Shown: positions 9,590-26,413, numbered from the stretch's first letter. The stretch is DNA of 64,000 nucleotides from Clostridia bacterium (GCA_017462485.1 JAFTRA010000006.1:1275-65274); one strand, 5' to 3'. Notes: generated from the sequence alone by a model not told the origin. Numbers and translations are program-made.

Positions 9590-9593
9590 AAGA

Positions 9594-9625
9594 AAGGGCT
9601 TCCCTCACTTTTGGGAAGCCCTTTG
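9594..9625. terminator. Bidirectional intrinsic terminator between convergent genes
   Basis: The hairpin is AAAGGGCTTCCC-loop-GGGAAGCCCTTT, flanked by A and T runs. Confidence 0.6.
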
Positions 9626-9646: not shown

Positions 9647-10891
9647 TTAAATAATTACGTGCTTTGGCAAGCCGTTTTCGTATTTAACGGCAGTTTCGCC
9701 TACTATAAGAGGTCTAAGATACTCAAGGCACTTTTCGGTAACACCGTTACCGGCCTCGTTTATGTAGTCCATAGGAACGGTTTTGATTTCGTTCGCTATA
9801 GTTCTGATATCCGCCATACCGTAGCTTACCGAATATTCTTTTTCGGCGCTACGCTCTATCGTTGCCATAACTCCCGTGTTACCGAGAAGAGCAAGGCGTA
9901 CTCCCGCCATACCCACTCCTACCGATTCATTTATATCGGTGAGCGAGCCTATGTGAGCTGCGCATCTTTGCGGAAGGCTGAGCTCAATTGAACGAACCTT
10001 GCAGCCGAGCTTCTCCTTGACGATATTTTCAAGCACCTTGCCCGTGCCCGAGAGGTATTTATGACCGAAAGCGTCAACCGCACCCGACTGACCGCCCGAG
10101 CCAACGTACTCACCGTCAGCAAATCTTATTCCCTCAGAAGCGCATACGAGAACTGCGGGATGCTTTTCCATGGCGCTCTTTACAGAAGCTATAAATTCCT
10201 CCGTGTCAAAGACACGTTCGGGAAGATATATAAGGTCGGGACCGTCTCCGCTTATCTCGGGGAGCGCTGCCGATGCCGTAAGCCAGCCTGCGTCTCTTCC
10301 CATTACTTCAACTATAGTTACCGCCTTGACGGTATAAACGCTTACGTCACGGAGTATTTCCTTGACGGTCGTTGCGACAAACTTCGCAGCCGAGCCGAAG
10401 CCGGGGGTATGATCGGTTGCCATAAGGTCATTGTCTATCGTTTTCGGAATTCCGACTACCCTAAGCTCGTATTTATGCTCCTTCGCATACTCCGAAAGCT
10501 TCAAAACGGTATCCATAGAATCGTTACCGCCAATATAGAAGAAATAACGAATGTCGTATTTCTTAAAGATTTCAAACATTCTCTCGTATGTAGCGGCATC
10601 AACGTCGTGGCTCTTCAGCTTTCTTCTGCAAGAGCCGAGAGCGGCCGCAGGCGTGGTTTCAAGAGTTGCGAGCCATTCTTCGTCAGGAAAGTGACTTCCG
10701 AGGTCAACAAGTCTTTCTTCAAGAAATCCCTCAATTCCGTTTCTCATACCGTAGAGAGTTTTAATAACGCCCTCCTCATTCGCCTTGGCGCATCCTCTTA
10801 TAACTCCCGAAAGAGTTGCGTTAATCGCAGAGGTCGGTCCGCCCGACTGACCTACGACAGCATTTCCTTTAAGCATAATCAAATTCTCCAT
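9647..10891 (-). CDS. pfp: 6-phosphofructokinase, pyrophosphate-dependent type
   Basis: This is a PFK-family protein. It has GGNDS where E. coli PfkA has GGDGS, which is the G104D-equivalent change. It has PKTIDND where PfkA has GTIDND, which is the K124-equivalent change. Both are the established signatures of PPi specificity. Confidence 0.75.
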   Translation of the reverse strand: MENLIMLKGNAVVGQSGGPTSAINATLSGVIRGCAKANEEGVIKTLYGMRNGIEGFLEERLVDLGSHFPDEEWLATLETTPAAALGSCRRKLKSHDVDAATYERMFEIFKKYDIRYFFYIGGNDSMDTVLKLSEYAKEHKYELRVVGIPKTIDNDLMATDHTPGFGSAAKFVATTVKEILRDVSVYTVKAVTIVEVMGRDAGWLTASAALPEISGDGPDLIYLPERVFDTEEFIASVKSAMEKHPAVLVCASEGIRFADGEYVGSGGQSGAVDAFGHKYLSGTGKVLENIVKEKLGCKVRSIELSLPQRCAAHIGSLTDINESVGVGMAGVRLALLGNTGVMATIERSAEKEYSVSYGMADIRTIANEIKTVPMDYINEAGNGVTEKCLEYLRPLIVGETAVKYENGLPKHVII

Positions 10892-10926: not shown

Positions 10927-11805
10927 TCAAAGCAAATCTTTTTCAGTAAACTTATATTCAGAATTACAGAAGTGACAAACTGCCGTGAGAGTGCGCGGCT
11001 TGCCCTCTTTTTCCTCTTCGTCAAACATAGCTTTAATCTCCGATTCTCCGAGACCGCGAATCTTTTTTCTCATTCTCTCACGGGAGCAGTCGCACTTATA
11101 TTCAACCTCGATAGTATCAAAGAGGTCAAACTCTATATCACGCATAGCGATGTCTATTATTTCCTCGTTCGAAAGGCCTGAGTCAAAGAGCTTTGATACG
11201 TTCGAGATATCGGCAGCGTTTCTTTCTATGAGGTCAACCGTTTTCTCATCGGGGAAAGGCAAGAGCTGAATGAGTATTCCGCCTGCGGCACGCGCGGTGA
11301 AATCGGTGTCAACAAGAACCCCGAGCGAAAGAACGGTCGGTATCTGCTCGCTTTTTGCAAAATAAGTAGCTATATCCTCCGCAACCTCTCCCGAAACTAT
11401 TTCAATAGTGCCGCTTTGAGGCTCTTTTCCGCCTACGTCACGTATCATATAAAAGGTGCCGTAGCCTACTGCTCCGCCGACGTCAAGCTTTCCGTTAGGC
11501 TTGCGCTTCGGGTCTGCGTTAGGATTGTCAATATAGCTCTTAACGTTACCGAAATAATCCGCAACGGCAATCATTTTTGATATTTCTCCGTTTGAGGAAA
11601 ATCCCACAGTCAAGCTATCGGTGCTTTCGGGAAGCATCGTTCCTATCATTGACGCCGCCGTTACGAGTCTTCCGAGTGCCGCAGTTGCGGTAGGCGCGGT
11701 TTTATGCACCTTTATCATCTCATTGACCATTTCCTTTGAGTTTATAACGAGAACTCTGGCAGAGCCGTCTCTTGTCATACCCCTCGTAATTAATGATTTT
11801 CCCAT
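10927..11805 (-). CDS. hslO: Hsp33 family redox-regulated chaperone
   Basis: The C-terminal zinc centre is CDCSRERM...CHFCNSEY. The start was set at 11805, which has an AGGAG RBS 8 nt upstream. Confidence 0.9.
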   Translation of the reverse strand: MGKSLITRGMTRDGSARVLVINSKEMVNEMIKVHKTAPTATAALGRLVTAASMIGTMLPESTDSLTVGFSSNGEISKMIAVADYFGNVKSYIDNPNADPKRKPNGKLDVGGAVGYGTFYMIRDVGGKEPQSGTIEIVSGEVAEDIATYFAKSEQIPTVLSLGVLVDTDFTARAAGGILIQLLPFPDEKTVDLIERNAADISNVSKLFDSGLSNEEIIDIAMRDIEFDLFDTIEVEYKCDCSRERMRKKIRGLGESEIKAMFDEEEKEGKPRTLTAVCHFCNSEYKFTEKDLL

Positions 11806-11807
11806 AA

Positions 11808-12572
11808 TCAATTCTCCTTTTTGCATCTTGCGACTATATAGAGCCTTTCGCTATCGTCGCTTCCCGCGTCAAATTCAAAATTCGAATAAGCGCCTATAAA
11901 TTCAAGCGAATTTCTCGAAAGCGCGGATTTTATCATACGGAGAGTGTACATTCTCTCACGCTGAATTTCGTCGTATCTTTCGTATCTTCCGTCGCGCGAC
12001 TCCTTGAACAGAGTTATATAGAAGTCACAGCATTTCGTATTTTTATTGTAATAATTTTGCCAAACGCACATAGCGTCTGAGCTTTCCATAACGTACGACT
12101 CGTCACCGTAAATATTCTCAAACTTGTATTTACCGTTAATGTCAAATATAAAAAGTCCGTCGGGTATAAGATAATTATGCACGAGCGAGAGCGTTTTGTC
12201 AAGGTCTTTATTGCTTGTAAGATGATTTATTCCGTCAAGGCAACATACCGCTGCGTCAACCGTTCCGTAAAGCTCAAATTCCCTCATATCCTGACAGAGC
12301 CAGAGCATTTTATCCGAAAGTCCCAAGTCGTTTGTTCTTTCTCTCGCTATATCAAGCATTTCGGGAGAATAATCAATTCCCGTCATATCGTAGCCGCGGC
12401 GAGCAAGCTCAATAGTCATACTTCCCGTTCCGCAGCCAAGGTCGAGAACCAAATCCGGCTTTCCTACTCCATAATGGCGCTCTATTATCTTTTCAATAAA
12501 GTCTGCCCATTCCGAGTAATTTATATCTCCGTTGAATTTATCGTAAAACGGAGCAAGCAAATCGTAAATCAT
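11808..12572 (-). CDS. Class I SAM-dependent methyltransferase (small-molecule type)
   Basis: Motif I is VLDLGCGTGSMTIELA, and motif post-I is GIDYSPEML. Its start is only 17 nt downstream of the helicase gene stop, on the same strand. Confidence 0.8.
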   Translation of the reverse strand: MIYDLLAPFYDKFNGDINYSEWADFIEKIIERHYGVGKPDLVLDLGCGTGSMTIELARRGYDMTGIDYSPEMLDIARERTNDLGLSDKMLWLCQDMREFELYGTVDAAVCCLDGINHLTSNKDLDKTLSLVHNYLIPDGLFIFDINGKYKFENIYGDESYVMESSDAMCVWQNYYNKNTKCCDFYITLFKESRDGRYERYDEIQRERMYTLRMIKSALSRNSLEFIGAYSNFEFDAGSDDSERLYIVARCKKEN

Positions 12573-12589
12573 AAAAACTCCTAAAAATC

Positions 12590-14824
12590 TTATTCGAAGC
12601 GCTCTATAACCTCGTCGGCAAAAAGCCTGTCCCGAGCGTAAGCCTCGCGCAACAGCTCCGGGGGAATATACTCGTCGTATTTATCAAATACCGGGCATTC
12701 TCCGTCGCGGACAAGAGCTAACGTATCAATACCGTCGCGCGCTATGATATCTCTTATGCCAAATAGAATATTGCGTCCTGCATCCTCACGCGCTTTGAAT
12801 TTTATATAATGGCAGCTCTCGCTTTGTATATCGGAAATACCAAGCTCCGAGGCGTATTTTTGCAAAAATCTGCGCAGTGTTCTGAAAGAACGCGTTCCGA
12901 GCCACGGGAAAATGCAATAGCTCTGACCACCGAGATACACAAGCATATTATCGCGCATTTTTGCGTTTTCCGCAACCCGTCTTGCGTTTTCAAGTCTCTC
13001 TTTCGCATTGTCACCAAGGAATGCGTATTCCTTACCGTTGAAGAGAACGTCACGCATAGCGAGAAGAATTTTCGTATGAATCTCTCCGCTGTCACCGGGC
13101 CAGGAAACCTCCATTTTGCCCTCTACTCGCTTGACGAATATGAGCTTTCTCTGAATATCGGTTTCCTTTACCTCCCATACTCGTCCCGCAAGGGCAAATC
13201 TATCGCCTACAGGTGGGGGTGTCGTTATAGTTCCGATTTCTTCACTGTCGCACCTGACGGTGAAATCCTCACTGTCCTTAAACACAGCGTAAAACTTAAA
13301 GCTTCCGATAAGTCTTTCGCCTTTAAGTCCGATAATAAGCTTTTTTTCCTCGGTAAATTCGAGATAATCGTCGTTTATCATTGAAACAAGCAGCGCACGG
13401 TAATCCTCTTTCTCGATAGCTGAAAGGGGTGGAAGGGAGAGCACCTTTGACGCAAGCTCCTTTGCCGAAAGCTCACCGCCGGACGCAAGAATACTGAGCG
13501 TTTGATGGAACGCAAGGCTTAACGGCATTTTTTTGAATCTCGGGGGCTCTATAAAGCGCTCGGTCGAATAAAGCTCGACTATTGCTATGCCGCGAAGCAT
13601 TTCCCAAGGAATTATTTCTGGAAGCGGCGCATTCGGAAGGGGACATTCCTCTCTGTATAGCATTATCATTTCCGGGGGCGTTCCTCTTCTGCCTGAGCGT
13701 CCGAGTCTTTGTAAAAATCCCGAAACGGTCGTTGGAGAGCCTACCTGGCAGACTCGCTCAAGTCTTCCGATATCAATTCCGAGCTCCATCGTTACGGTAG
13801 CGCAGGTAACCGCTCTGACAACGCTTTCGTCCTTCATCTTTGCCTCGGCATCTTCTCTCAACGATGCTGAAAGATTGCCGTGATGAATAAGAAAAACGTC
13901 ATCGTCTCCCCTCGCCTTTGCTATTTGACGAAGAGTTGCGGTAACGTATTCGGTTTCTTCTCTTGAATTGGAGAAAATAAGCGCTTTCTTTCCGTCAACC
14001 GAATCGTAAAGAAATTCATATCCGGGGTCAAGCATTGCTCTGCCGCCTCGCTCCTCCGACGGAGCGGTATCGTAAGACGGAGACTTCGTTTGAAGCTCAT
14101 TTGGGTCTTGTATATAAAAATGCTCAAGTCCAAGCCGCCAACGCAGCTTTTGCTTTTCGGGAACTGGGGCATAGGTTCTCCTACCGCTTCCCGCTCCAAG
14201 CCATTTTGCCGCCGCCTCGACGTCTCCTATGGTAGCGCTGAGTCCGACTCTTCTCGGAGAGTATCCGATAAGCTCGCCTATTCTCGAAAGCTGGCAGATA
14301 ACCTGATTTCCTCTGTCCTCTCCCAGCATTGCGTGAATCTCGTCAATAACAACGTATTTAAGCGAGCCGAAAAGCCTTGGAATATCGTTAGCTCTGTTTA
14401 TAAGCATCGATTCAAGAGACTCGGGAGTTATCTGCAAAATTCCCTCGGGATTTTTCAAGAGGCGTGATTTATGCGACTGGCTTACGTCTCCGTGCCAATG
14501 CGTAACGGTAATTCCCGACATATCGAGAAGCTCCTCGAGTCTATAAAACTGGTCGTTTATCAAGGACTTCAGGGGCGCAATATAAAGCACGGATATGGAA
14601 TTTGGCGCATCTTGGGAATTTACAATATCGGCAATTATAGGGAAAAATGCCGCCTCGGTTTTACCCGAAGCCGTCGATGAAGAAAGCAGCAAATTGTCAT
14701 CGGTTTCAAAAATGGCGTGCGCCGCCGCAAGCTGAATTTCTCGAAGCTCCGTCCAACCGTGACTGTAAATATATTCCTTTATAAAATCAGGAAAAAGCGA
14801 AAAAATCCTATTCGCTTCGCTCAC
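12590..14824 (-). CDS. sngC: Lhr/BrxHI-like DEAD/DEAH-box SF2 helicase, Shango SngC-like
   Basis: Motif I is SSTASGKTEAAF, motif II is VIDEIHAM, motif III is GLSATIG and motif VI is QRLGRSGRRG. A C-terminal extension of about 330 aa follows. The start is GTG with a GAGGTG RBS. It is the third gene of the TerB/ATPase/helicase operon. Confidence 0.8.
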   Translation of the reverse strand: MSEANRIFSLFPDFIKEYIYSHGWTELREIQLAAAHAIFETDDNLLLSSSTASGKTEAAFFPIIADIVNSQDAPNSISVLYIAPLKSLINDQFYRLEELLDMSGITVTHWHGDVSQSHKSRLLKNPEGILQITPESLESMLINRANDIPRLFGSLKYVVIDEIHAMLGEDRGNQVICQLSRIGELIGYSPRRVGLSATIGDVEAAAKWLGAGSGRRTYAPVPEKQKLRWRLGLEHFYIQDPNELQTKSPSYDTAPSEERGGRAMLDPGYEFLYDSVDGKKALIFSNSREETEYVTATLRQIAKARGDDDVFLIHHGNLSASLREDAEAKMKDESVVRAVTCATVTMELGIDIGRLERVCQVGSPTTVSGFLQRLGRSGRRGTPPEMIMLYREECPLPNAPLPEIIPWEMLRGIAIVELYSTERFIEPPRFKKMPLSLAFHQTLSILASGGELSAKELASKVLSLPPLSAIEKEDYRALLVSMINDDYLEFTEEKKLIIGLKGERLIGSFKFYAVFKDSEDFTVRCDSEEIGTITTPPPVGDRFALAGRVWEVKETDIQRKLIFVKRVEGKMEVSWPGDSGEIHTKILLAMRDVLFNGKEYAFLGDNAKERLENARRVAENAKMRDNMLVYLGGQSYCIFPWLGTRSFRTLRRFLQKYASELGISDIQSESCHYIKFKAREDAGRNILFGIRDIIARDGIDTLALVRDGECPVFDKYDEYIPPELLREAYARDRLFADEVIERFE

Positions 14825-14858
14825 TTATCTTCACCTCTTTTCGTGTTTCTGCCTAAAA

Positions 14859-16229
14859 TTAAATGTCTATATCAAACAAACTTACCTTTTTGTTAGGAAT
14901 AATAGGCGTTTCGGATAACTCTTCCTTTGCGGTCTGGTCGGCGCTGTCCGTAAAGCTCGTAGTTTTAATAAGCTCTGAAAACTTTGCGTTCTTATTATCA
15001 CGAAGAACGTTCAGGAATGAAAGAAAATCTCTTATAATTTCTCTTGGCGTAAGCATCTCATCCGCTCCGGCGCGACGTCTGGCTAAAGCCACGAATTCCT
15101 CAATTTCCGCATCAGTAACGAGCGGCTCGCTTCCGTCACGCATAGCGTAGAGATTCGTGAGTCTTTTCACAAGAGCGAGAAGCTCGCTTCCAGAAAGGGT
15201 GCGAAGTCTTATCACGGGAGATGACAAATTCTGATACCCCAAAGAAGCGGCATATTTCGAATCGGCTAGTCGGCTCTTCAAGGCATCGTAGCTGAAAAGT
15301 CCTCGTCTCGTATCCTCGAGAAACTGCGGTGTTCCGCCGAAAATCACACCGAGATTTTTCGCCTTGCCCTGCAAGGTATCGTTAAATATAGCAAGAAGCT
15401 TTTCGTAGTTTGCTTCTCTCGAAATTCTGTTCGGAATTTTGTATAGGTTTACGCACTCGTCGATAAACACTATAAATCCGAGATAACCGAGCTTTACTGA
15501 GAGTGCGGCAAAAAGCTTTATATATCCGTACCAGTTATCGTCGTCGATAACTGTGCTTACTCTGAAGCCGAGAGCCGCATTTGCCTCGGTTTTATTCGAG
15601 AATTCGCCTCGTAGCCACCTAAGACATGCGCTCTTTTTCTCAATATCGTCATTTATAGTAGCGCTGTAATACTCACCAAGTATTCTCGCAAAATCAAAGC
15701 CGCCCACGTCTCCCTCAAGCTCGGAGAGCATAAGCATTACCTTTTTCTTAAGCTCGCTCTCATAATTTTCGGAATCGGGCAAGATTCCTTCATCGGCAAG
15801 CTCGTACTGGAGCTTTGCGTAATGCCTTGAGAGTATTGTCGGAAGCGCGCCGCCGTCGGGCGCTGCTTTACTTGCCATATTTATCATCAGCTCTTTGTAC
15901 GTGGCAAGTCCCGCTCCGTTGCCTCCCGATAGTCTGCGCTCCGGTGAAAGGTCAGCGTCGGCACAGATAAATCCGCGCTCAAGCGCACGTCCTCGTATAA
16001 GCTGTATCAAGAAGCTTTTACCGCTTCCGTATCTGCCTATAAGAAAACGGCACGCAGCTCCACCCTCGGCAACGTCGTCTAGGTTATCAAGAAGCGAGCC
16101 GAGCTCCTCTTCTCTGCCTATCGCTATATAAGGCGCTCCTATCCTAGGAACAACTCCTGCGGAAAGCGAGGTTATGAGCGTATTTAAAATCCTTTTCGGA
16201 ATCTTTACTTCGTTATTTTGCGAAGCCAT
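14859..16229 (-). CDS. sngB: P-loop ATPase (BrxD/DUF2791-like), Shango SngB-like
   Basis: Walker A is IGRYGSGKSF and Walker B is FIVFIDECVNL. The protein is 456 aa. Its start overlaps the upstream gene by 25 nt and has a GAGGAG RBS. Confidence 0.75.
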   Translation of the reverse strand: MASQNNEVKIPKRILNTLITSLSAGVVPRIGAPYIAIGREEELGSLLDNLDDVAEGGAACRFLIGRYGSGKSFLIQLIRGRALERGFICADADLSPERRLSGGNGAGLATYKELMINMASKAAPDGGALPTILSRHYAKLQYELADEGILPDSENYESELKKKVMLMLSELEGDVGGFDFARILGEYYSATINDDIEKKSACLRWLRGEFSNKTEANAALGFRVSTVIDDDNWYGYIKLFAALSVKLGYLGFIVFIDECVNLYKIPNRISREANYEKLLAIFNDTLQGKAKNLGVIFGGTPQFLEDTRRGLFSYDALKSRLADSKYAASLGYQNLSSPVIRLRTLSGSELLALVKRLTNLYAMRDGSEPLVTDAEIEEFVALARRRAGADEMLTPREIIRDFLSFLNVLRDNKNAKFSELIKTTSFTDSADQTAKEELSETPIIPNKKVSLFDIDI

Positions 16230-17842
16230 TCGGTAATCTCCTCATAATAATCATCTATAATCTTATATTTTTCAATATCCGTTTCTTCGAGAATTACGTC
16301 TCCGAAGTTATCGGAAAATGCTTCATTTATTTTTTCTGCTACGGCATCGGGCAAAAGATTTTTCTCCTTTGCCAAGGAATATGCCGAATTTGTATCGTCA
16401 GCCAAGATAAATTCAAGGAATTTGAGCTCGGTTTCTCCGAGTCCGTAGCTATCCGTACAGTCTTCGTCGGAAAAAGCGACCGATTCGAGCTTAGGCTCTG
16501 ACGTGACTTTCGTTTCGTCGGCTTTATTATCCGCGTTGTCCTCTTCCAATTCTTCGATTCCCTCGATAAGCCTTGCCGTCATCTTCCAGGACGCTCTCTC
16601 TATTTCGACGGCGTCCTCAAAGGTTGCTTTTGAATCGGGAGCATCGTAAAGTCGCTCGTATTCGGGAGCGTTGGCACGCTCTTTCTCTCTCCTGAGTCTT
16701 TCAAACTCGGATTCAAAGTATTTATCAATGACGTATCTTACAGAATCGGATAGCTCGCGCACTGCAAGACGGCTTTTTACGCCAAGGCAGGCACGGAGCT
16801 TGTTTTCCGTGTATTTCACAGCTGCTGTAACCTCTCGGCGCAACTCGGGAGAATCCGCAATCGACGAATATTCTATCTCGAGATTGCACTTTACGGTATG
16901 CGTACAAAGAGAGCCCGCAAAGGCACTCCTCGTAAGCTTCGTCGTGCCACTTTTTGATATTATGTCACCCGAAAGCAATATTGAAAATACACGCTGCATA
17001 GCGCCCTCTACGTGCATTCTATACATAACCGCGCTTTCGCCGCCCGCATATTTCCCCCGTCTCCAATCATAGTCGGAAAGATAGGCTATCATAGCGGAGG
17101 CACCGTTCCCCCCCTTATCCAAATCCGAAAGATAAAATTCCTTAAACGAGGATGCGTTTATGACGTCAAAGAGGAAGTCCTTTATTTTATCAAACGGGCA
17201 ATCAAGCTCGTAAACCAGGCAGTAATCCTGCACCCAGAGAGCGAAGCTCACGTCAAGTCTCGGAAGCTCGTCTCGGTATGCTCGCCAAACGTCGCATAAG
17301 AGCGAAAGTCCCTCTTCCTTGCCTATTTTTTCAGGCAAATTCAGAATTTCATAGGCATAGAGGTAGATATACGAGTAATCCGTCTTTAAATAACTGCCAA
17401 GACGAAGTCGGTCACGCCAATAGAAATAGTATTTTTTCTGCTCCGCAGTCATCTGCGAATACTGTGGCTTATAGGAATAAAAGGATACAAAATCACTCTT
17501 TGGGCATTTATAATCGAAATATATGAGAGCCGCTTTTCTGAACGTATCGTAAAAATCAAATCTGTCAATAGACGGCTTTATCGTAATCTTTTTTAAGAGC
17601 TTATTGTTTTTGGGGTAGTACGAATAGGGCTCTTTAGAACTCGTTTCCTCACCTCTTTCAGCTTCGAAGGCGCTGAAATCTATTTTGCGCTCGGACTTTT
17701 TGTTCTTTGCACTTTCCTTGTCTTCGATAACAACTTCGCTGACTCTTATTCCCGTGGAAAACGGAGACATCACAGGCTTTGATTTGGGCACGAGCTTCGA
17801 TACGTCCCAAAAGTCGTCGTACTCATTTTTAAAATCAGCCAT
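16205..17842 (-). CDS. sngA: TerB-N / TerB-C domain protein, Shango SngA-like
   Basis: The central segment YSYKPQYSQMTAEQKKYYFYWRDRLRLGSYLKTDYSYIYLYAYEILN looks like the TerB_N hallmark. The C-terminal segment LLPDAVAEKINEAFSDNFGDVILEE looks like TerB_C. It is the first gene of the operon. Confidence 0.75.
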   Translation of the reverse strand: MADFKNEYDDFWDVSKLVPKSKPVMSPFSTGIRVSEVVIEDKESAKNKKSERKIDFSAFEAERGEETSSKEPYSYYPKNNKLLKKITIKPSIDRFDFYDTFRKAALIYFDYKCPKSDFVSFYSYKPQYSQMTAEQKKYYFYWRDRLRLGSYLKTDYSYIYLYAYEILNLPEKIGKEEGLSLLCDVWRAYRDELPRLDVSFALWVQDYCLVYELDCPFDKIKDFLFDVINASSFKEFYLSDLDKGGNGASAMIAYLSDYDWRRGKYAGGESAVMYRMHVEGAMQRVFSILLSGDIISKSGTTKLTRSAFAGSLCTHTVKCNLEIEYSSIADSPELRREVTAAVKYTENKLRACLGVKSRLAVRELSDSVRYVIDKYFESEFERLRREKERANAPEYERLYDAPDSKATFEDAVEIERASWKMTARLIEGIEELEEDNADNKADETKVTSEPKLESVAFSDEDCTDSYGLGETELKFLEFILADDTNSAYSLAKEKNLLPDAVAEKINEAFSDNFGDVILEETDIEKYKIIDDYYEEITEWLRKITK

Positions 17843-17890
17843 TTCACTCTCCCCTTTCCCTAATTTAAACGTTTAACACATAATCAATAA

Positions 17891-17919
17891 ATTGTAACAT
17901 ATTTTTCGTTAATTGTCAA
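17891..17919 (-). promoter_or_regulatory. Sigma-A promoter of the sngABC-like operon
   Basis: The minus strand reads TTGACA, a 17-nt spacer, then TACAAT, about 50 nt upstream of the sngA-like start. Confidence 0.55.
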
Positions 17920-18017
17920 TCGATTTTCCGGGCTTATGGGCATAAAATCTTTAATTATCATAACTACAGCGCAAAATCGTAGGATTCTAGAATACGGCAA
18001 TAATATAGTGAAAGACA

Positions 18018-18046
18018 TTGAATTTCGTATCGCTGTATAATATAAT
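18018..18046 (+). promoter_or_regulatory. Sigma-A promoter of the giant LamG-repeat gene
   Basis: TTGAAT, a 17-nt spacer, then TATAAT. An AAGGAGG RBS lies at 18063-18069. Confidence 0.5.
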
Positions 18047-18078
18047 CAGCAAAAAACAATTTTAAGGAGGAAATCTCT

Positions 18079-21000
18079 ATGAAGCGAAAACTGATTATAC
18101 TAATTTTCTCTACGTTGCTTGTAGGAATAATTTTCACGCTCTCTGCACTTGCCGCATCCGAAGAAGATAGCGGTATTACGTTTACGAGCAATGATTATTA
18201 TCAAAGCATTAACAATTTGGATTCGGTCCCATTGACCTTTGAGGCTTGGGTTAAGGTTTCAAAAGATGCCCCCGACGGAACTAAGATAGGTGCCATCGTG
18301 GGAACGTACGATGGTGCGGCAAACGGCGACGACTCTATCAACCTTGAGATAGTTGAAAACGGAGCTCCGAAAATTTATATAAGACCGTATGACTCTCAAA
18401 CGGGTAAGGATGGTGATATTCAAGTTATCTTCCCGAACGTTGATATGAGAACCGGTAGTATTACGCATCTTGCAATTACGCTTGACCCTGCTAACAACAG
18501 GGCGTATTGCTACGTTGACGGTGAGCTAAAAGAAACCTACGTGGGATTAAAATATTGGTGGGACTCCGCCAACAATACATACGCAGGTGGCAAATCCCAC
18601 AACACTATGGATATAACGGAGCTTGCCGATTTCAGCGTTATGAATAACGTTGCTCTCGGAAGAGATCACAGAACAGGAAGCGCTAATGCCGTGCTTAACA
18701 GCAATTACGCGGAGGTTTATTCGGTGGCTCTCTATTCCAAAATGCTTGACCAGAATACCATCGCGAAAAATATGCAGAGTGAAGATTACACCGCTGACTC
18801 TCTTTTGATGGCGTATAATCTCACTGCCGAAGGTAAGGAAAGACTTAAGGATAATTCCTCGAATGAAAACCACCTTTATTACACAAATCTTACCGACTCA
18901 AAGCTTAATGATTACTATAAGGATTCGGGAATAAGATTTACAAATAACGATTATTATCAGAGCGTTAATACGCTTACCTCTCTTACTTTAACATTTGAAG
19001 CTTGGGTTAAGGTTTCAAAGGCTCCTGACGGAACAAAAATAGGGCCTATACTCGGAATGTACGATGCCAATGCAAACGGTGATGACGCTATTAACTTTGA
19101 AATAGCCGAAAACGGTGCTCCGAAAATCTACATAAAGCCATTCGATGAGAATACCGGAAAAGATGCCGACGCTATTCAGGTTATTTTCCCCACCATTGAT
19201 ATGAGAGATTACGAAAATATCGCTCATCTCGCAATTACGCTTGACCCTGCTAACAACAAGGCGTATTGCTACGTTAACGGTGAACTAAAAGAAACCTACG
19301 TGGGATTAAAATATTGGTGGGACTCCGCCAGCAATACATACGCAGGTGGCAAATCCTACAACACTATGGATATAACGGATCTTGCCGATTTCAGCGTTAT
19401 GAATAACGTTGCTCTCGGAAGAGATCACAGAACAGGAAACTCTATATATACTCTCAACAGCGATTACGCGGAGGTTTATTCGGTAGCTCTTTATTCCGAA
19501 ATGCTTGACCAGAATACCATCGCGAAAAATATGCATAGCAAAGATTACACCTCCGACTCTCTTTTGATGGCGTATGATCTTACTGCCGAAGGCAAGGAAA
19601 GACTTAAGGATAATTCCTCGAATAAAAACCACCTTTATTACACAAATCTTACCGACTCAAAGCTTAATGATTACTACAAGGATTCGGGAATAAAATTTAC
19701 AAATAACGATTATTATCAGAGCGTTAATACGCTTGACTCGATTCCTTTGACCTTTGAAGCTTGGGTTAAGGTGAATTCAAGCACGCCCGACGGACAAGAA
19801 ATCGGTCCCGTTATTGGAATGTACGACGGTTCGTCAAACGGAGATGACGCTATCAACCTTATTATCGCAGAAAACGGTGCTCCGAAAATCTACATAAAAC
19901 CCTACGATGAGTCCAGCGGCAAGGATATAACTGATATTCAGGTTATTTTCCCCACTGTTGATATGAGAGATTATGAAAATATCGCTCATCTTGCAATTAC
20001 GCTTGACCCTACTAACAACAAGGCGTATTGCTACGTTAACGGAGAGCGTAAAGCAACCTACTCGGGAGAAAAATATTGGTGGAACGGCAACGCATTCCAA
20101 GAAAGCGGTAGCACTATAACCATAGCTTCTCTTTTCGACTTCGGAGTTATGAATAACGTTGCTATCGGAAGAGATCACAGAACAGGAAACTCCCTTTACA
20201 AGCTTAACAGCGATTATGCAGAGCTTTATTCGGTAGCTATATATTCCGAAATGCTTGACCAGAATACCATCGCGAAGAATATGCAGAGTGAAGATTACAC
20301 CTCCGACTCTCTTATTATAGCGTATGATCTCACTGCCGAAGGCAAGGAAAGACTTAAGGACCTTTCCTTGTGCGGAAACAATCTTTGCTATTCAAATACC
20401 GAAACTACAGCCCTTACGGAGTGGTACGGCGATGAAAACAGCGGCTTCGATTTCTCTGCTGAAAAGCTCTACAGAAACGACGATATAGTAACCGATACTC
20501 CTCTGACGTTTGAAGCTACCGTCTTCTTCCCCAGGGCAAACAAAATAAACGTTGCGGGCGGAGTTATAGTAGGAAACCGCGGATACGATAAGCGCGCTAT
20601 CAGCTTTGAAATAAGCTCAAATGGCGCTCCTACGCTCGTTTGGGTAGATGATGACGGCAGTACTATCAACACCTTTACGTTTGATAAGGTTTCCGTTTAT
20701 ACGGGTGAAGAAACCACCGTAACGGTTACTATAGACAAGGATTCAAACAAAGTTTTATGCTACGTAAACGGTGAACTTGAGCAATCTATTGCTTACCAAA
20801 GCATTACGTTCACTTCCTGCTTCTCCGCGTTTACTATCGGCGGTGATTACAGGAAAAACAACAAATTCACCTTTAACGGAAAGCTCTTATCCTGCGCGGT
20901 TTATTCTTCTACTCTTACCGCCGAGCAAATAAGCGCCAATCTTAACGAAACCGAAACAGATAATCTGCTTTTTGCTTATGATTACGCTGATTCTGTAGAA

Positions 21001-22779
21001 AACGGCGCATATCCCGAAAGACTTAAGGATATAAGCGAAAACGGAAACGACGCTATCGTTCCCGTGTACTTCATAGGAGATACTTTGGATAGTAATTTTG
21101 AGGCAGCTTACTCCTTTGCGGTAGTAGGAGATACTCAATCAGTGACCTATTATTACCCGGATAAGCTCTCCTCTATCTACGATTGGATACTCGCAAATAT
21201 TGACGAAAAAAATATCAAATTCGTTATGGGACTCGGTGACGTCACCGAAAAGAACTCAGACACCGAATGGGCTGCCGCAACCCTGCAATTCCAAAAGCTC
21301 CACGGTACTATTCCCTATTCGGTTGCCGTAGGAAATCACGATTCCGCAGCGAAGCTTACGAATTATCTTTCAACTATCGGATACGGAGATATCCTTTCGG
21401 GAAAATTCGGAAACGACCTTGCCAATACTTATCAATTCCTTACCGTAGGGAATGTTAAATATCTTATCTTCACTCTCGACTGCGGAGCATCCGACGAGGT
21501 TCTTGAATGGGCAAGCGGAGTTATTTCCGCAAATTCAGATTGCAACGTTATAATTACGACTCACGCTTATCTTTTCAGAGACGGAACCACTCTTGACTCC
21601 TCCGACCCTTATAACGTTACCGCATACGGATACAGCAACGACGGAAGCGATATATGGGATAAGCTCGTTTCAAAGCACGACAATATAGTGCTCGTTCTTT
21701 CGGGACATATAACCAGTGACGAAATCGTAACCGCGAAGCACGTAGGAAAGAACGGAAACGTCGTTACCGAGCTTATGATAAATCCTCAGGATTACGACGC
21801 CAGATATTCTCCCCTCGGTCTTGTGACTATGCTTTACTTCTCTGAAGACGGAACTAAAGTGCGCGTTGAATCCTACTCAACTATTGAAAAGCAGTACTTT
21901 ATGTACGAAAACCAGTTCGAAACTACTATTGATTCGGTTGAAACGGAAGCTCCTGCATCAAGCTTCAAGCCCCTAGCTAACATAACTCTCAGCGCAAACA
22001 TAGGTTACAATATATACGTTCCCGCTGTGAAGTCGCTTTTGAAATTTACCGTTGACAATGACGAATACACCGATTTCTCCGAGCTTGAAACCAAAATTAT
22101 AGACGGAATCGAATATTACGTGATCAGAACTTCTCTTGCTTCCGGCGAAGCTGCGAGAAATATTAAGCTCAAGGTATGGATTAAAAACGGGAACGACACT
22201 GTTACGGGAACCTTCACATTCAACCTTGCTAAATACGCGGTTAAGGTGCTTAACGGCGAAGATGAAGAGGAAAAAGCTCTTATTATGGACGTGCTTGCAT
22301 ACGTAAAGGCAGCATACGATTACTTTAACGGTGAAAGCCTTTCCGAAATTGACGAGCTCTTAAGTCAATACAGCGCTTCCCCTACTATAGAAGGCTCAGC
22401 CGAAATCCCAAATTGTCCTGCTCTTTCCGAAATAACGATGCAGCTGGCTGAAGATCCCGCAATGATATTCTATCTTGCCGATGGATATACGAAAGACGAC
22501 TTTACGTTTAAGGTATCCGGTAGAAATGTTGAAGCAAAGGAGATTATCTCTGACAGAGGACGTTACCTTGCAGTTACGCTTTACGCTTACGGTATGTGCG
22601 AAACTATTGAATTCACCGTTGGCGGAGTGACATATACGTATCATATAAACGCCTATTATAACTTTGCTTTGGGAGAAAACGACGCAAAGCTCACAAACCT
22701 CGTTCTATCCTTCTGGAAATACTGCCAGAGCGCAAGAGATTATAAAACTTACGTAACAAGTAAATCAGGAGGCAATTAA
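18079..22779 (+). CDS. Giant secreted multidomain protein: signal peptide, four LamG/ConA-like lectin domains (three near-identical), a calcineurin-like metallophosphoesterase domain and a C-terminal domain of unknown function
   Basis: The signal peptide is MKRKLIILIFSTLLVGIIFTLSALAAS. LamG_3-like signatures recur (TFEAWVKV ... NGAPKIYI ... CYVDGELK ... VALYS..L....I). Metallophosphoesterase motifs are VVGDTQ, GLGDVTE, GNHD, TTHAY and SGHI. Confidence 0.8.
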   Translation: MKRKLIILIFSTLLVGIIFTLSALAASEEDSGITFTSNDYYQSINNLDSVPLTFEAWVKVSKDAPDGTKIGAIVGTYDGAANGDDSINLEIVENGAPKIYIRPYDSQTGKDGDIQVIFPNVDMRTGSITHLAITLDPANNRAYCYVDGELKETYVGLKYWWDSANNTYAGGKSHNTMDITELADFSVMNNVALGRDHRTGSANAVLNSNYAEVYSVALYSKMLDQNTIAKNMQSEDYTADSLLMAYNLTAEGKERLKDNSSNENHLYYTNLTDSKLNDYYKDSGIRFTNNDYYQSVNTLTSLTLTFEAWVKVSKAPDGTKIGPILGMYDANANGDDAINFEIAENGAPKIYIKPFDENTGKDADAIQVIFPTIDMRDYENIAHLAITLDPANNKAYCYVNGELKETYVGLKYWWDSASNTYAGGKSYNTMDITDLADFSVMNNVALGRDHRTGNSIYTLNSDYAEVYSVALYSEMLDQNTIAKNMHSKDYTSDSLLMAYDLTAEGKERLKDNSSNKNHLYYTNLTDSKLNDYYKDSGIKFTNNDYYQSVNTLDSIPLTFEAWVKVNSSTPDGQEIGPVIGMYDGSSNGDDAINLIIAENGAPKIYIKPYDESSGKDITDIQVIFPTVDMRDYENIAHLAITLDPTNNKAYCYVNGERKATYSGEKYWWNGNAFQESGSTITIASLFDFGVMNNVAIGRDHRTGNSLYKLNSDYAELYSVAIYSEMLDQNTIAKNMQSEDYTSDSLIIAYDLTAEGKERLKDLSLCGNNLCYSNTETTALTEWYGDENSGFDFSAEKLYRNDDIVTDTPLTFEATVFFPRANKINVAGGVIVGNRGYDKRAISFEISSNGAPTLVWVDDDGSTINTFTFDKVSVYTGEETTVTVTIDKDSNKVLCYVNGELEQSIAYQSITFTSCFSAFTIGGDYRKNNKFTFNGKLLSCAVYSSTLTAEQISANLNETETDNLLFAYDYADSVENGAYPERLKDISENGNDAIVPVYFIGDTLDSNFEAAYSFAVVGDTQSVTYYYPDKLSSIYDWILANIDEKNIKFVMGLGDVTEKNSDTEWAAATLQFQKLHGTIPYSVAVGNHDSAAKLTNYLSTIGYGDILSGKFGNDLANTYQFLTVGNVKYLIFTLDCGASDEVLEWASGVISANSDCNVIITTHAYLFRDGTTLDSSDPYNVTAYGYSNDGSDIWDKLVSKHDNIVLVLSGHITSDEIVTAKHVGKNGNVVTELMINPQDYDARYSPLGLVTMLYFSEDGTKVRVESYSTIEKQYFMYENQFETTIDSVETEAPASSFKPLANITLSANIGYNIYVPAVKSLLKFTVDNDEYTDFSELETKIIDGIEYYVIRTSLASGEAARNIKLKVWIKNGNDTVTGTFTFNLAKYAVKVLNGEDEEEKALIMDVLAYVKAAYDYFNGESLSEIDELLSQYSASPTIEGSAEIPNCPALSEITMQLAEDPAMIFYLADGYTKDDFTFKVSGRNVEAKEIISDRGRYLAVTLYAYGMCETIEFTVGGVTYTYHINAYYNFALGENDAKLTNLVLSFWKYCQSARDYKTYVTSKSGGN
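18169..20430 (+). repeat. Three in-frame tandem repeats of 756-759 bp inside the giant gene
   Basis: Repeat units start at 18169, 18925 and 19684, at SGITF, SGIRF and SGIKF. Long stretches are identical at the DNA level, for example 18870-18990 against 19629-19750. The antisense shadow ORFs also recur with a 759-nt offset. Confidence 0.9.
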
Positions 22780-22780
22780 A

Positions 22781-22921
22781 ATGAAAAAATATCGAAATCC
22801 CGAAATTGAAATAATCGAAGTTGCTTCCGAAGACGTTATTACGACTTCTCCGGGTACGGAAACCTCAACGCAAGACGACTGGGACGGAAGTTGGGAAATA
22901 TCAAGCGCGGTAGAACTTTAA
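22781..22921 (+). CDS. Unannotated 46-aa acidic micro-protein, translationally coupled to the giant gene
   Basis: The ATG lies 1 nt after the TAA of the 1566-aa ORF, with an AGGAGG RBS 8 nt upstream. The product is MKKYRNPEIEIIEVASEDVITTSPGTETSTQDDWDGSWEISSAVEL. A terminator follows at 22951-22980. It is below the 60-aa cut-off of the ORF track. Confidence 0.55.
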   Translation: MKKYRNPEIEIIEVASEDVITTSPGTETSTQDDWDGSWEISSAVEL

Positions 22922-22950
22922 AGCGCAATTAATTTTTTACTTTAAAAAAA

Positions 22951-22980
22951 CGCCTCGGAGGGCATTATTCCTTCGAGGCG
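22951..22980. terminator. Bidirectional terminator between the giant-gene operon and the GH38 gene
   Basis: The hairpin is CGCCTCGGAGG-loop-CCTTCGAGGCG, with an A-run before it and a T-rich tract after it. Confidence 0.6.
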
Positions 22981-23012
22981 GTTCTTTATGTTTTTGTTGT
23001 TGATTTTTAATA

Positions 23013-25403
23013 TCATGCGTCGAACTCGGTCAATAGAACCTCGCGCCATTCACTCTCACCGTCGGCAAGATAATAAGTGCTTATGCTATACGGAGATATT
23101 TCGGCTGAGAGAGCATGCGGCAAAAGAGCTCCACTTATCTTGAGCTTCGTCTGCTTTCCTTCCGTTTCATAAACACGAATTACCGTTCCCTTACCGTCTT
23201 CCGAGCGCTTTATCGCTGATATCTCTACGTTTTTAGAGTTAGATACGATTCCTCTATACTTGCCAGCGAGGTTACCGTTATGGTTATTTTCGAGTACTAC
23301 GTCAACGCGTGTATTAAGCTTTCCTGCCTCTCGTATAACCTCACTAAAGCCTTCTCCGTTGATTTTCATAAACGAGTACTCAAATTTATGCTCACCCTGA
23401 TCGGTGAATACGCATCTATCGTCAGGCGTGCGTCCGTGGTCAGCATAATACGGACTTCTTACAGCGGTCAAATACATTGTGTTTCCATTAGCCGAGAAGC
23501 TGTATTTATTGGAATTTAAAATAGAGTAGCCGTTGATATTATCCTTAAGAGCAATCCATCTCTGACCGCTCTCCTCTTCTCCGTCGGACGGGCGCTTTAT
23601 AACGCCAAACGGAATCTCGTAATACGCTTCGGGATTTTCAAGCGCGGTATCAAAGGCTATCTTAAGCATTTTATGCTCCTCGTGGAAATCAACCCAGGCG
23701 CTCACCTCAAGAATTTTACTACCCGAAGCAAGCGAGAAGCTTTGCTTCAAAACCGACTTGTTATATCTTGACTCCACCATAACGGTTGCCCTTATCGGAC
23801 CTTCCTCAAGAACGGTTATTTTTGCATCTCTAAATCTTCCTATTTCATTCGTAAAGAAATTCTTTCCGTGCGACCACGTATCATGCCCGCTCTCATCGAT
23901 AACGATTGGAACAGCGCCTAATCCCGAGAGCATTTCAGTTGCATTCTCTTTATCGAAAATACTCTTTATATATCCGCTTTTGCTATCAAACTCGACCTTG
24001 ATATACTCATTTTCCAACGAGGTATCGGTAACGCGGAGATTATTTTCAAAGCTTGACGTGGGAGTATCCTTAATATAATAAACCGCATATCCCATAGCGG
24101 GAACGTGGGCTTTAAATAAGGTATCGCTCTTACCATAAGTCAGATATGCCGCCGAATGAACGTACTGAATCGGTATCTCTTGTCCTTCCGGAGATAAAAC
24201 AGAGCTGAGCTGCTTATTTATTTTAACAAGACATTCATTATCAAACGGCAGTGTATTGAAGATAACTATAGGATATCCGCGCTCTGCATCGGAGGTATCG
24301 ATAGCCCAAGAAATTGTCTGATAAGCGCTGTTTTTTACTTTTTCTGCCCTCGAAATACTTTCACCGAGCATATATGAAGCATCGGTATAAGCCTCTTCTA
24401 TTGAGCAACCGCCTATGATGTCATGGAAATGGCAAAACAGCACGTTCTGCCAAGCATTTCCTATCTCGTCCGTTGCGTATTTCTTTCCGGTGAGATTTGC
24501 AGCAATCATATTTGCCGTTTCAGCCGAAATCAAAGCGTTTTCGCTCCTTCTCACCAGGTTTTTAATGAGTGATACAGCAGAATAGCATCCCGATGCGTGA
24601 TGCTGAAGATCATCCTCATAAACGTAAAGCTCACTGCTTTTTCCCTTTACGCTTTCAAAATAATCGAGTATATCCGAGAAAATATACTCTCTGTCGGGAT
24701 GATTTCCGGCACTTTCCTTGATTATATTTATATTCTGCTTCGTAGGTCCGCCTCCGTGATTTCCTACACCGTAAAACACGGGGAAGCTTTCGCTTTCATC
24801 AGGCATATAAGAATCAAGTTTTTCTATCTTCTCTTCAAGCTCCTCGATAGATTGCATATTGTAGCAATAAGGCTCGTTTATTCTATGAGCTATGACATCA
24901 GAGCCGTCGGGCGAGCGCCAACGGAAAAGATTAGCGGGCAGAGCGTTTTCGTGAGGTCCGGGACGCATGAAGATATAATAGTCCATACCGCTCTTTTTAA
25001 GAATCGCGGGCAACATAAGATTATGTCCGAATGAATCTACGTTGTAGCCTATCTTTGCCGTTTTGCCAAATCGGTCATAGAAATATCGCTGAGAATAAAG
25101 GCTCTGACGGGCAAACCCCTCTCCCGACGGAAGATTGCAGTCAGGCTGAACAAACTGACCTCCGACTATGATAAACCGTCCTTCCTCTATTTTCTCTTTC
25201 ATCTCCTCAAACATTTGAGGAGCAAAATCCTCTATGTATTTATAAACCGACGCCGAGGAGCAAACGAATTTAAAATCGGGATACTCCTTCATTCTGTCAA
25301 GCGCACTTCTCACGGTAGCCTTAGCCTCAGCTGAGCCCTCTTGCCATCTCCACATCCACACGGGATCAAGATGCGCATTTCCTATAAAATAATATTTTTT
25401 CAA
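23013..25403 (-). CDS. Alpha-mannosidase, glycoside hydrolase family 38
   Basis: The N-terminus is YFIGNAHLDPVWMWRWQEG, followed by GYNVDSFGH. At 796 aa the length and layout are typical of bacterial GH38 enzymes. Confidence 0.85.
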   Translation of the reverse strand: MKKYYFIGNAHLDPVWMWRWQEGSAEAKATVRSALDRMKEYPDFKFVCSSASVYKYIEDFAPQMFEEMKEKIEEGRFIIVGGQFVQPDCNLPSGEGFARQSLYSQRYFYDRFGKTAKIGYNVDSFGHNLMLPAILKKSGMDYYIFMRPGPHENALPANLFRWRSPDGSDVIAHRINEPYCYNMQSIEELEEKIEKLDSYMPDESESFPVFYGVGNHGGGPTKQNINIIKESAGNHPDREYIFSDILDYFESVKGKSSELYVYEDDLQHHASGCYSAVSLIKNLVRRSENALISAETANMIAANLTGKKYATDEIGNAWQNVLFCHFHDIIGGCSIEEAYTDASYMLGESISRAEKVKNSAYQTISWAIDTSDAERGYPIVIFNTLPFDNECLVKINKQLSSVLSPEGQEIPIQYVHSAAYLTYGKSDTLFKAHVPAMGYAVYYIKDTPTSSFENNLRVTDTSLENEYIKVEFDSKSGYIKSIFDKENATEMLSGLGAVPIVIDESGHDTWSHGKNFFTNEIGRFRDAKITVLEEGPIRATVMVESRYNKSVLKQSFSLASGSKILEVSAWVDFHEEHKMLKIAFDTALENPEAYYEIPFGVIKRPSDGEEESGQRWIALKDNINGYSILNSNKYSFSANGNTMYLTAVRSPYYADHGRTPDDRCVFTDQGEHKFEYSFMKINGEGFSEVIREAGKLNTRVDVVLENNHNGNLAGKYRGIVSNSKNVEISAIKRSEDGKGTVIRVYETEGKQTKLKISGALLPHALSAEISPYSISTYYLADGESEWREVLLTEFDA

Positions 25404-25591
25404 GCTTGCTTACTCCTTGCTTTATTTTAAGTTTATTATACTTCTTGCCCTATGTAAATTCTTCCATAATATTAACAATTCATTATTGTATTCTACGATT
25501 TAGCGTAATGATTTCTATTTTTCTAAGAAATTACTTTACTTTCTCGTAAGTCTATAGTAAAATATACTCAAACACCGAGGTGATAGAAGAA

Positions 25592-26413
25592 ATGAAATAT
25601 GAATTTTTTACTAATGAAAATTACGTAAGTAAAGTACACCACATTTCCGCCTCAGAAAAAATACTGCGCGGAAAAACAGATCCTCATTTCCACGAATTCT
25701 TTGAAATGGAACTGATTACGGAAGGTAACGGAAAGCACGAAATAAACGGAAACGAAAAAGAACTGAAAAAAGGAAGCATTTATTTTTTGCCTCCCGGTAA
25801 TTTCCATAGAATATTCTGCACTCCCGAGCTTAAAGTTATAAACATAATGTTTGACGAAAGCATTATATCGAGCGAGCTTCAAGCAAAGCTTTTGGACAGC
25901 AACGCAAGCTTATGCGCAGTCTTTAACGAAGAGGAGCTTTCCGACGTTATTGCCATAGCAAAACAGCTTATAGAGGAAATTAACGCTCCCGATAATTATA
26001 CCGCGCATTATTCCGCAAACCTGCTTAACTGCATACTCATAAAGATAATGAGAAAAGCGGAGGTTCTTCCATTTTCGGATATAAAAGGCAAATATGAGGC
26101 AATAAATACCGCTATAAACTATCTTTATAAAAACTTCAAAGATGCTCCTACGCTGGACGAGCTTGCAAAAATGTGCGGATACAGCCCGAATTATTTTAGA
26201 AAGCTCTTTATAGATCTGACAGGAAAATGCTATACGGATTTCGTAAACGCCTTGAAGGTTTCTTACGCAAAGGTGCTTCTTGCGTCAAACAATATGACAG
26301 TTTCCGAAATAGCCTTTGATTGCGGATTTACCTCACTTTCAAACTTTTACCGCGTATTTCATAGCGAAACCGGGCTCTCTCCTCTTGAATATCGAAATAA
26401 AATAGTGCCTTAA
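25592..26413 (+). CDS. AraC family transcriptional regulator
   Basis: The protein has a cupin N-terminus and a C-terminal AraC HTH (LDELAKMCGYSPNYFRKLF ... CGFTSLSNFYRVFHSETGLSPLEYR). It is divergent from the GH38 gene. The ATG at 25592 has a GAGGTGA RBS. Confidence 0.85.
   Translation: MKYEFFTNENYVSKVHHISASEKILRGKTDPHFHEFFEMELITEGNGKHEINGNEKELKKGSIYFLPPGNFHRIFCTPELKVINIMFDESIISSELQAKLLDSNASLCAVFNEEELSDVIAIAKQLIEEINAPDNYTAHYSANLLNCILIKIMRKAEVLPFSDIKGKYEAINTAINYLYKNFKDAPTLDELAKMCGYSPNYFRKLFIDLTGKCYTDFVNALKVSYAKVLLASNNMTVSEIAFDCGFTSLSNFYRVFHSETGLSPLEYRNKIVP

Follow-up and report, generated by a model that had tools for sequence, protein, structure and literature searches.

A very probable Shango (SngABC) anti-phage operon, vertically inherited among housekeeping genes of gut Clostridia

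Three tightly packed genes occupy positions 12590-17842 of a 64,000-nucleotide (nt) stretch of DNA from a Clostridia bacterium (GCA_017462485.1, JAFTRA010000006.1:1275-65274), a stretch hereafter called the window and to which all coordinates refer. A first-pass annotation, made from the sequence alone, had read them as a Shango-type anti-phage operon inserted as a defence island between housekeeping genes and the gene of a giant surface protein. The locus raises two questions, namely whether the genes belong to the Shango (SngABC) family and whether they came to their present site as a mobile island or have been inherited there with the chromosome. The results presented below indicate that the locus is very probably a complete, intact and stand-alone Shango anti-phage system of uncultured, spore-forming gut Clostridia (Oscillospiraceae-like), and that the cassette is ancient and vertically inherited at a fixed housekeeping site, not a recent island.

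Family identity and layout of the operon

The three predicted proteins were searched against the Pfam, PADLOC-DB and NCBIfam profiles. In Pfam, the product of gene 1 matched TerB_N (E = 9.7e-15, 55.3 bits for a cutoff of 25) and TerB_C (5.3e-12, 46.6 bits for a cutoff of 26.3), and its sole match in PADLOC was the SngA model (6.7e-48), covered from position 81 to 527 out of 528. The second protein was recognized by PF10923, BrxC_BrxD, the former DUF2791 (1.4e-145, positions 1-412 of 414) and by the SngB model (5.3e-161, 534.6 bits), and the third one by DEAD (1.3e-29), Helicase_C (4.1e-15) and the SngC model (5.7e-232, 770.4 bits, positions 5-713 of 720). Since the best PADLOC match of each protein was the corresponding Sng model, the locus was assigned to Shango and the genes were named sngA, sngB and sngC. 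This agrees with the first-pass call, for which the two family tests fixed beforehand, TerB_N/TerB_C in gene 1 and PF10923 in gene 2, both came out positive. Hidden Markov model E-values of 1e-48 to 1e-232 also argue that the triad of open reading frames (ORFs) is not due to chance.

The Shango detection rules of DefenseFinder and PADLOC make all three genes mandatory. Here the three matching families were found adjacent, co-directional and in the A-B-C order, and the locus is a known type of system that these standard tools would call; indeed, Shango is already among the systems that DefenseFinder identified in metagenome-assembled genomes (MAGs) of the rumen. What the window provides is thus an intact Shango representative from a Gram-positive anaerobe, not a new kind of system. 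The triad is said to have been predicted by comparative genomics by Anantharaman and Aravind in 2012, a work that the Shango papers also cite. Phage defence by Shango, which the first reading had described as experimentally shown, was reported by Millman et al. 2022 (bioRxiv 2022.05.11.491447) and Johnson et al. 2023 (PMC10250203), with a reduction in efficiency of plating of 10- to 100-fold for the Shango of P. aeruginosa PA14 and of ~10-fold for that of E. coli. Like these two systems, the present one combines the same three families in the A-B-C order with full-length PADLOC matches, intact motifs and no nuclease or toxin, whereas its host is an uncultured, anaerobic, spore-forming member of the gut Clostridia.

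The three genes were indeed tightly packed and co-directional, and lie on the minus strand. sngA (16205..17842, 545 amino acids [aa], ATG start) encodes the TerB_N and TerB_C protein and overlaps by 25 nt (16205-16229) with sngB (14859..16229, 456 aa, ATG start), which encodes a BrxD-like P-loop ATPase. A gap of 34 nt (14825-14858) separates the latter from sngC (12590..14824, 744 aa, GTG start), the gene of a superfamily 2 (SF2) helicase of the Lhr-core type. The 25-nt overlap of the sngB start with the sngA stop suggests that translation of sngB is coupled to that of sngA. Ribosome-binding sites were found in front of sngA (GGGGAGAG), sngB (GAGGAG) and sngC (AGAGGTGA, at 7-nt spacing from the GTG at 14824). 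An identical SngC protein from an NCBI MAG (P0121) is annotated with 738 aa, with a start six codons further on; given that the GTG at 14824 has the better ribosome-binding site, the public annotation may be slightly short. The consensus promoter proposed previously, TTGACA-17-TACAAT, was present at 17919..17891 (-), 48 nt ahead of the ATG of sngA. It is of the SigmaA type with a TG-extended -10, agrees with the consensus at 11 of 12 positions and is the top-scoring site within 12300-18300. Judged from these signals, the three Shango genes form a single, closely coupled operon headed by a near-consensus promoter.

Predicted protein architecture and a tentative mechanism

All the peptide motifs listed in the first-pass annotation were located in the three proteins. 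SngC retains helicase motifs I, II, III and VI in intact form (SGKTEAAF at residues 53-60, DEIH at 161-164, SAT at 196-198 and QRLGRSGRRG at 372-381). The AlphaFold2 (AF2) model of SngC, built on an alignment of 78 sequences at 31-59% identity, reached a predicted local distance difference test score (pLDDT) of 93.3 and a predicted template modelling score of 0.93, and denoted two RecA domains followed by a winged helix, a beta-barrel and an alpha+beta C-terminal domain (CTD). The best Foldseek match of this model was the Lhr core of M. smegmatis (5V9X, E 6.9e-30, TM-scores 0.71/0.69), over the whole length, followed by MrfA. The "large C-terminal extension" claimed for gene 3 is therefore present, but corresponds to the ordinary winged helix, beta-barrel and CTD of the Lhr core; the same layout, with a winged helix-turn-helix (wHTH), a beta-barrel and an Lhr-CTD, has been described for BrxHI (PMC12839542). 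This C-terminal part is kept throughout the family, since full-length matches (8-734) were obtained down to 33% identity in a search of 50%-identity cluster representatives that returned 1504 proteins at E <=1e-30.

Although SngC has the whole-length fold and the DExH SF2 motor in common with M. smegmatis Lhr, sequence identity between them is ~20%, and SngC fell below the housekeeping equivalog cutoffs TIGR04121 (212.8 bits for 850), PRK13767 (195.3 for 849) and PRK09751 (106.9 for 1496), that is, those of Lhr, of the ligase-associated helicases and of PRK13767. Moreover, Lhr is found alone or paired with MPE or ligase, whereas SngC is encoded with SngA and SngB. By analogy, SngC is likely to work like Lhr without being an Lhr ortholog, and is probably a 3'-to-5' translocase on single-stranded DNA. 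Six proteins of the family search (P0348, P0359, P0326, P0385, P0357 and P0366) contain a full-length SngC-like core (33-37% identity, 8-734) with C-terminal fusions, the partners being PD-(D/E)XK (1760-1816 aa), RNase_T with or without WYL (1049-1074 aa) and DUF2779 (~1250 aa). These fused proteins may be distinct helicase-nuclease proteins of defence or repair, and the nuclease fusions point to DNA as the substrate of this type of helicase. SngC itself includes no nuclease, and the cassette encodes neither a nuclease nor a toxin, and likewise no transmembrane component and no dedicated methylase.

SngB possesses an intact Walker A (GRYGSGKSF, 65-73, with GSGKS at 68-72) and an intact Walker B (FIVFIDEC, 252-259, with DE at 257-258); a sequence search returned no relative of solved structure. 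BrxD, to whose family SngB belongs, has been classed as an ORC/Cdc6-type AAA+ protein and proposed to load or activate the helicase linked to it (PMC12839542). The resemblance to BrxD/BrxHI pointed out in the first reading is that of the linked dyad of type 2 BREX (PMC12839542), and in BREX type 2 (Pgl) and type 6 a homologous pair of PF10923 ATPase and helicase is likewise tightly linked. In the present locus, however, the partner is a TerB_N/TerB_C protein, PglZ, PglX, BrxC and PglW are missing, there is no methylation-based module for self/non-self recognition, and scores against the Brx models are far below those against the Sng models.

The AF2 model of SngA (pLDDT 77) comprises an N-terminal motif (residues 9-20), a confidently predicted helical core (~96-428) that includes TerB_N, and a C-terminal module (467-545, TerB_C) made of three helices, a beta-hairpin and a final helix, together with two disordered linkers of variable length (~23-70 and 429-466). 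The TerB_N signature announced for gene 1 was found as YSQMTAEQKKYYFYWRDRL at residues 128-146, and the TerB_C tail was borne out by the Pfam match. Across the clade, identity in the N-terminal motif (DDFWDxxKLVPK) amounts to 67% and residues F11, W12 and P19 never vary; followed by a disordered linker of variable length, the motif looks like a docking peptide. Identity across the clade was 16-26% in the linkers and 53-69% in most folded regions, from TerB_N through residue 428, with lower values in the beta segment 71-95 (41%) and in TerB_C (46%). SngA had no relative in the PDB by sequence, nor by fold (Foldseek best E 0.5), the weak local matches to wHTH-like regions of LysR and MarR proteins being taken as a hint only.

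SngA is comparable to other TerB-type proteins, such as those of the Ter tellurite operon, BnzA of Bunzi and DinB of Dionysus, through TerB_N and TerB_C, accessory domains which Pfam derives from TerB-containing proteins. In contrast to the Ter operon, no match to the TerB domain proper (PF05099) was detected in SngA with Pfam at E <=0.01, no transmembrane-like helix was seen in its AF2 model, and terA, terC, terD and terZ were absent from the ORFs of at least 150 aa of the window, all of which were scanned with Pfam over the 64 kb. The TerB label is thus weak evidence for a membrane role here. Surveillance of the membrane by TerB-type proteins has been put forward as a speculation (bioRxiv 2022.05.11.491447); this idea goes back to the TerB name and gets no support at this locus, since SngA contains neither TerB proper nor a predicted membrane segment.

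No paper on the mechanism of Shango was found in the searchable literature, in agreement with what the first reading had stated. By analogy with the families described above, a mechanism can be outlined, the details of which are possible rather than probable. SngA would act as a sensor or adaptor for an infection cue, by means of the TerB_N core, the flexible linkers and the wHTH-like module at its C-terminus. SngB, as an ORC/Cdc6-type AAA+ protein like BrxD, would assemble on the helicase in an ATP-driven manner and load SngC or switch it on. SngC, as a 3'-to-5' Lhr-type translocase, would then strip or unwind replication or recombination intermediates of the phage (D-loops, R-loops or forks), so that phage DNA replication would be blocked directly or the DNA passed to host nucleases. 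Neither abortive killing nor a modification-based discrimination of self from non-self would be involved. The nuclease fusions of related helicases would support such a DNA-directed activity of SngC, and the absence of a nuclease from the cassette restricts the possible mechanisms to interference driven by the helicase or to the recruitment of nucleases of the host.

Vertical inheritance and competing readings

Relatives were collected from contigs of one genome per species queried with the flanking methyltransferase, which led to the recovery of 80 loci, from MAGs of Clostridia/Oscillospiraceae of ruminant and other animal guts. The cassette sngA-sngB-sngC was found immediately upstream of methyltransferase-hslO(-pfk) in half of them (40/80), within a conserved order rpsF-ssb ... 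ispE, sngABC, methyltransferase-hslO-(SOD-like)-pfk-metK-recD2. Where the cassette is missing (18 species), ispE directly adjoins the methyltransferase gene, the distance from the stop of the former to the start of the latter being -41 to +83 nt, indicating that the cassette is a clean three-gene unit of presence or absence. Gains and losses were counted by parsimony on a neighbour-joining tree of the methyltransferase, Hsp33 and PFK with 100 bootstraps: six state changes were obtained in 100 of 100 replicates and the root state was present in 95, which corresponds to one ancient gain of the cassette and about six clean losses. According to the first-pass annotation, the call would fail if the triad were universally conserved core synteny and gave no phage phenotype; the arrangement found comes close to such synteny, yet with about six independent clean losses it is not universal.

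Distances of SngC were correlated with those of PFK (r = 0.84), the methyltransferase (0.83), IspE (0.86) and RecD2 (0.73), pairs of housekeeping proteins giving 0.62-0.77; SngB and SngC distances thus correlate with the flanks as well as the flanks do among themselves, with the caveat that the comparison genes lie within ~10 kb of the cassette, so that ancient transfer by long-tract homologous recombination is formally possible. In the closest pair, dS (synonymous substitutions per synonymous site) was 0.52-0.59 for the cassette and 0.48-0.63 for the flanks; beyond the closest pairs dS was saturated and was not used. Mean p-distance was 0.28 for SngB and 0.25 for SngC, compared with 0.29-0.34 for the methyltransferase, Hsp33 and PFK, and omega (the ratio of non-synonymous to synonymous rates) was 0.016-0.06 for SngB and 0.014-0.05 for SngC. 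Purifying selection on SngB and SngC is therefore at least as strong as on their housekeeping neighbours. For SngA, the mean p-distance was 0.53 and omega 0.07-0.115, corresponding to roughly double the divergence of SngB and SngC. An arms race as the cause of this fast divergence was only partly supported, as much of it comes from the two disordered linkers and omega stays <=0.115.

The promoter was conserved along with the genes. TTGACA-17-TA[T/A/C]AAT was present 25-100 nt upstream of sngA in 38/38 orthologous loci examined, with an invariant -35 hexamer and with the TG in all loci save one (37/38). At a fixed position in the 17-nt spacer (loci L003-L070), an AACG was at least 90% conserved across the 38 species, and may serve as an operator or as an element of the discriminator type. 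The other near-consensus promoters of the window, at 4163, 27550, 36278 and 59686, are all devoid of AACG; near-consensus promoters of the window include that of tRNA-Thr and the one at 27550 (+), located in the ispE-ssb interval, the expected place of rpsF.

Such a retention pattern also fits a domesticated genome-maintenance module, that is to say, a constitutive host machine for DNA repair or replication restart which in this lineage no longer acts, or never did act, chiefly against phage. Inheritance at one core locus in 40 species with distances and dS matching those of the flanks, p-distances of SngB and SngC below those of the methyltransferase, Hsp33 and PFK with omega down to 0.014, a promoter of the same near-consensus class as the tRNA and 27550 promoters, the predicted co-transcription with hslO and pfk, the lack of mobile-element hallmarks or neighbouring defence genes and the fold of the repair helicase Lhr would all be expected from such a module. 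Exactly these three genes have, however, been cleanly deleted about six independent times in close relatives, so that the module is dispensable; the three proteins best match Shango models built from systems of demonstrated anti-phage activity; SngC fails every housekeeping helicase equivalog cutoff; and SngA evolves at two to four times the rate of SngB and SngC, as would an interface exposed to a changing target. On balance, we consider a host maintenance function improbable. Slightly less improbable, though still unlikely, is that in this clade Shango now serves as a core module, fixed in the lineage and under strong constitutive expression, which was either co-opted for host genome maintenance or retained in part by transcriptional entanglement instead of steady phage pressure, the near-consensus sngA promoter being predicted to drive methyltransferase-hslO-pfk as well. 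If true, a defence system would here have evolved in an unusual manner, and ~40 co-diverged orthologous operons would be available for work on the mechanism.

Several points weigh against an anti-phage Shango at this locus. An anti-phage phenotype has been published for the Shango of E. coli and of PA14, and for no Clostridial one. Long vertical retention, embedding in a housekeeping operon and the lack of neighbouring defence genes are atypical of defence islands, and the selection on SngB and SngC, stronger than on the flanks, is, like the other retention features, also compatible with genome maintenance. Every relative comes from a MAG, and the genes that served for comparison are all in physical linkage with the cassette. 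With no published Shango mechanism, every mechanistic step proposed above is drawn from domain homology; the sensor role of SngA is a guess, as this protein has no canonical TerB (PF05099) and no solved structural relative, and the wHTH-like likeness of its C-terminus is weak (Foldseek E ~0.8, probability 0.93, for a query region that was not reported). An anti-phage Shango is the preferred and very probable identity.

The description of the cassette as a defence island stood in so far as it is a discrete unit of presence or absence between ispE and the methyltransferase, and failed for a mobile or recent island, given its conservation at one site in 40 species. Recent horizontal acquisition between housekeeping genes would be in keeping with this discreteness and with the contexts of Shango elsewhere, in tRNA-linked islands of E. 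coli and a variable hotspot of P. aeruginosa (PMC10250203), as well as with the plasmid relatives, restricted to four distant matches on Bacillales megaplasmids, of which the one locus examined (Paenibacillus) carries the same TerB_N-ATPase-helicase triad. It is nevertheless highly improbable here: the orthologs are co-positioned and co-diverging in 40 species with the root state mentioned above, the GC content of the cassette (0.43-0.48) is the same as that of the flanks, the nearest tRNA is >18 kb away, no relative was found in viral contigs, and Pfam/PADLOC searches of the window ORFs of at least 150 aa revealed no recombinase, integrase, transposase or other defence gene. The usual features of mobile islands, such as an integrase, a transposase, a tRNA site, a GC anomaly, variable cargo or nearby defence genes, were thus not found. 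Carriage by phages or plasmids was rejected on account of the absence of viral-contig relatives and of the few, distant megaplasmid matches. The ispE/methyltransferase site was likewise rejected as a defence hotspot because Sng-minus genomes hold nothing there, with one exception, L079 (JAZQRW010000178.1), where an EamA transporter gene and two tandem MATE genes are found as the only alternative cargo.

Least of all is to be expected from a remnant or accessory BrxD + BrxHI pair of BREX type 2 or 6 next to an unrelated upstream gene, since the matches of gene 2 to BrxD (PADLOC 2.4e-40, 137 bits; NCBIfam NF033438 3.5e-40, 138.3 bits for a cutoff of 350) and of gene 3 to BrxHI (1e-122, 408.8 bits), although such a linked dyad exists in BREX type 2, are far exceeded by those to the Sng models (535 vs 137 and 770 vs 409 bits), PglZ, PglX, BrxC and PglW are absent from the window ORFs of at least 150 aa, and the TerB_N/TerB_C gene is coupled to gene 2 and kept with it in 40 species, which makes this reading extremely improbable.

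As a Shango, the cassette differs from those of E. coli and PA14 by its fixed housekeeping site, its vertical descent in ~40 species and its invariant near-consensus promoter, instead of a hotspot or tRNA island. What is new here is therefore evolutionary, namely an ancient and constrained Shango among housekeeping genes. The ~40 orthologous operons of graded divergence lend themselves to covariation-based prediction of the SngA/SngB/SngC interfaces and to telling the conserved folded parts of SngA from the variable ones, mainly the two disordered linkers, and bear on why strong purifying selection would maintain a defence system over such a long time.

Flanking genes and predicted transcription unit

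The flanks described in the first-pass annotation, hslO and a methyltransferase on one side and a giant surface protein on the other, were matched by Pfam. Downstream of sngC follow, on the same strand, a class I S-adenosylmethionine (SAM) methyltransferase gene (11808-12572, -), Hsp33/hslO (10927-11826, -) and pfk (9647-10891, -). The methyltransferase gene starts 17 nt past the sngC stop with its own ribosome-binding site, leaving no space for a terminator; many relatives show a 4-nt overlap between sngC and the methyltransferase gene. A sequence scan of the intergenic regions from sngA through pfk revealed no terminator-like site until a strong bidirectional intrinsic terminator at 9593..9624 (both strands; 12-bp stem, 7 G-C pairs, T-runs on both strands), which is located between the convergent pfk and AraC-family genes. 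On the basis of the 17-nt spacing and of the lack of a terminator-like site before this hairpin, sngA-sngB-sngC-methyltransferase-hslO-pfk is predicted to form a transcription unit of ~8.3 kb with its 3' end at 9593-9624. Within the methyltransferase gene, the scan also detected a promoter-like site (12202..12174, -), which could feed hslO and pfk too.

The methyltransferase was considered as a fourth Shango gene and rejected, since its domain is a generic class I SAM one and 18 Sng-minus species, as well as outgroups, carry methyltransferase-hslO directly after ispE. It showed a partial PADLOC match to mad2, the methyltransferase of MADS (81 bits), limited to the methyltransferase domain; this match is probably generic, since the gene is kept beside hslO whether or not Shango is present.

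Upstream of sngA, a gene at 18079-22779 encodes a secreted-looking protein of 1566 aa with four LamG domains and a metallophosphatase domain, whose translation contains three long and highly similar internal repeats. It is followed by genes for a GH38 alpha-mannosidase (23013-25403) and an AraC regulator (25580-26413), and this block (18079-26413) separates sngA from ispE (26523-27473) in the window. As ispE directly precedes sngA in 26 of the 38 tabulated Sng-positive loci, the block looks like a lineage-specific insertion of a glycan-utilization or surface module.

The rest of the window is core chromosome, with genes for RecD2, MetK, PFK, Hsp33, IspE, SSB, Ffh, GlpK, KsgA and LepA, as well as MutS2, RecO, Era, PhoH, PEPCK, Spo0A and YqfD. 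Four ORFs, at 4228-5466, 45767-46720, 47812-49500 and 58098-59066 (412, 317, 562 and 322 aa), had no significant Pfam/PADLOC match, the one at 4228 being preceded by a near-consensus extended -10 promoter at 4163-4191. The spore-forming Clostridia origin guessed in the first reading agrees with the Oscillospiraceae/Clostridia MAG relatives and with the presence in the window of YqfD, a stage IV sporulation protein (56597-57748), and Spo0A (62415-63179), which support an endospore-forming lineage. Finally, the block yqfD-phoH-ybeY-era-recO-mutS2 displays the classical Firmicute order.

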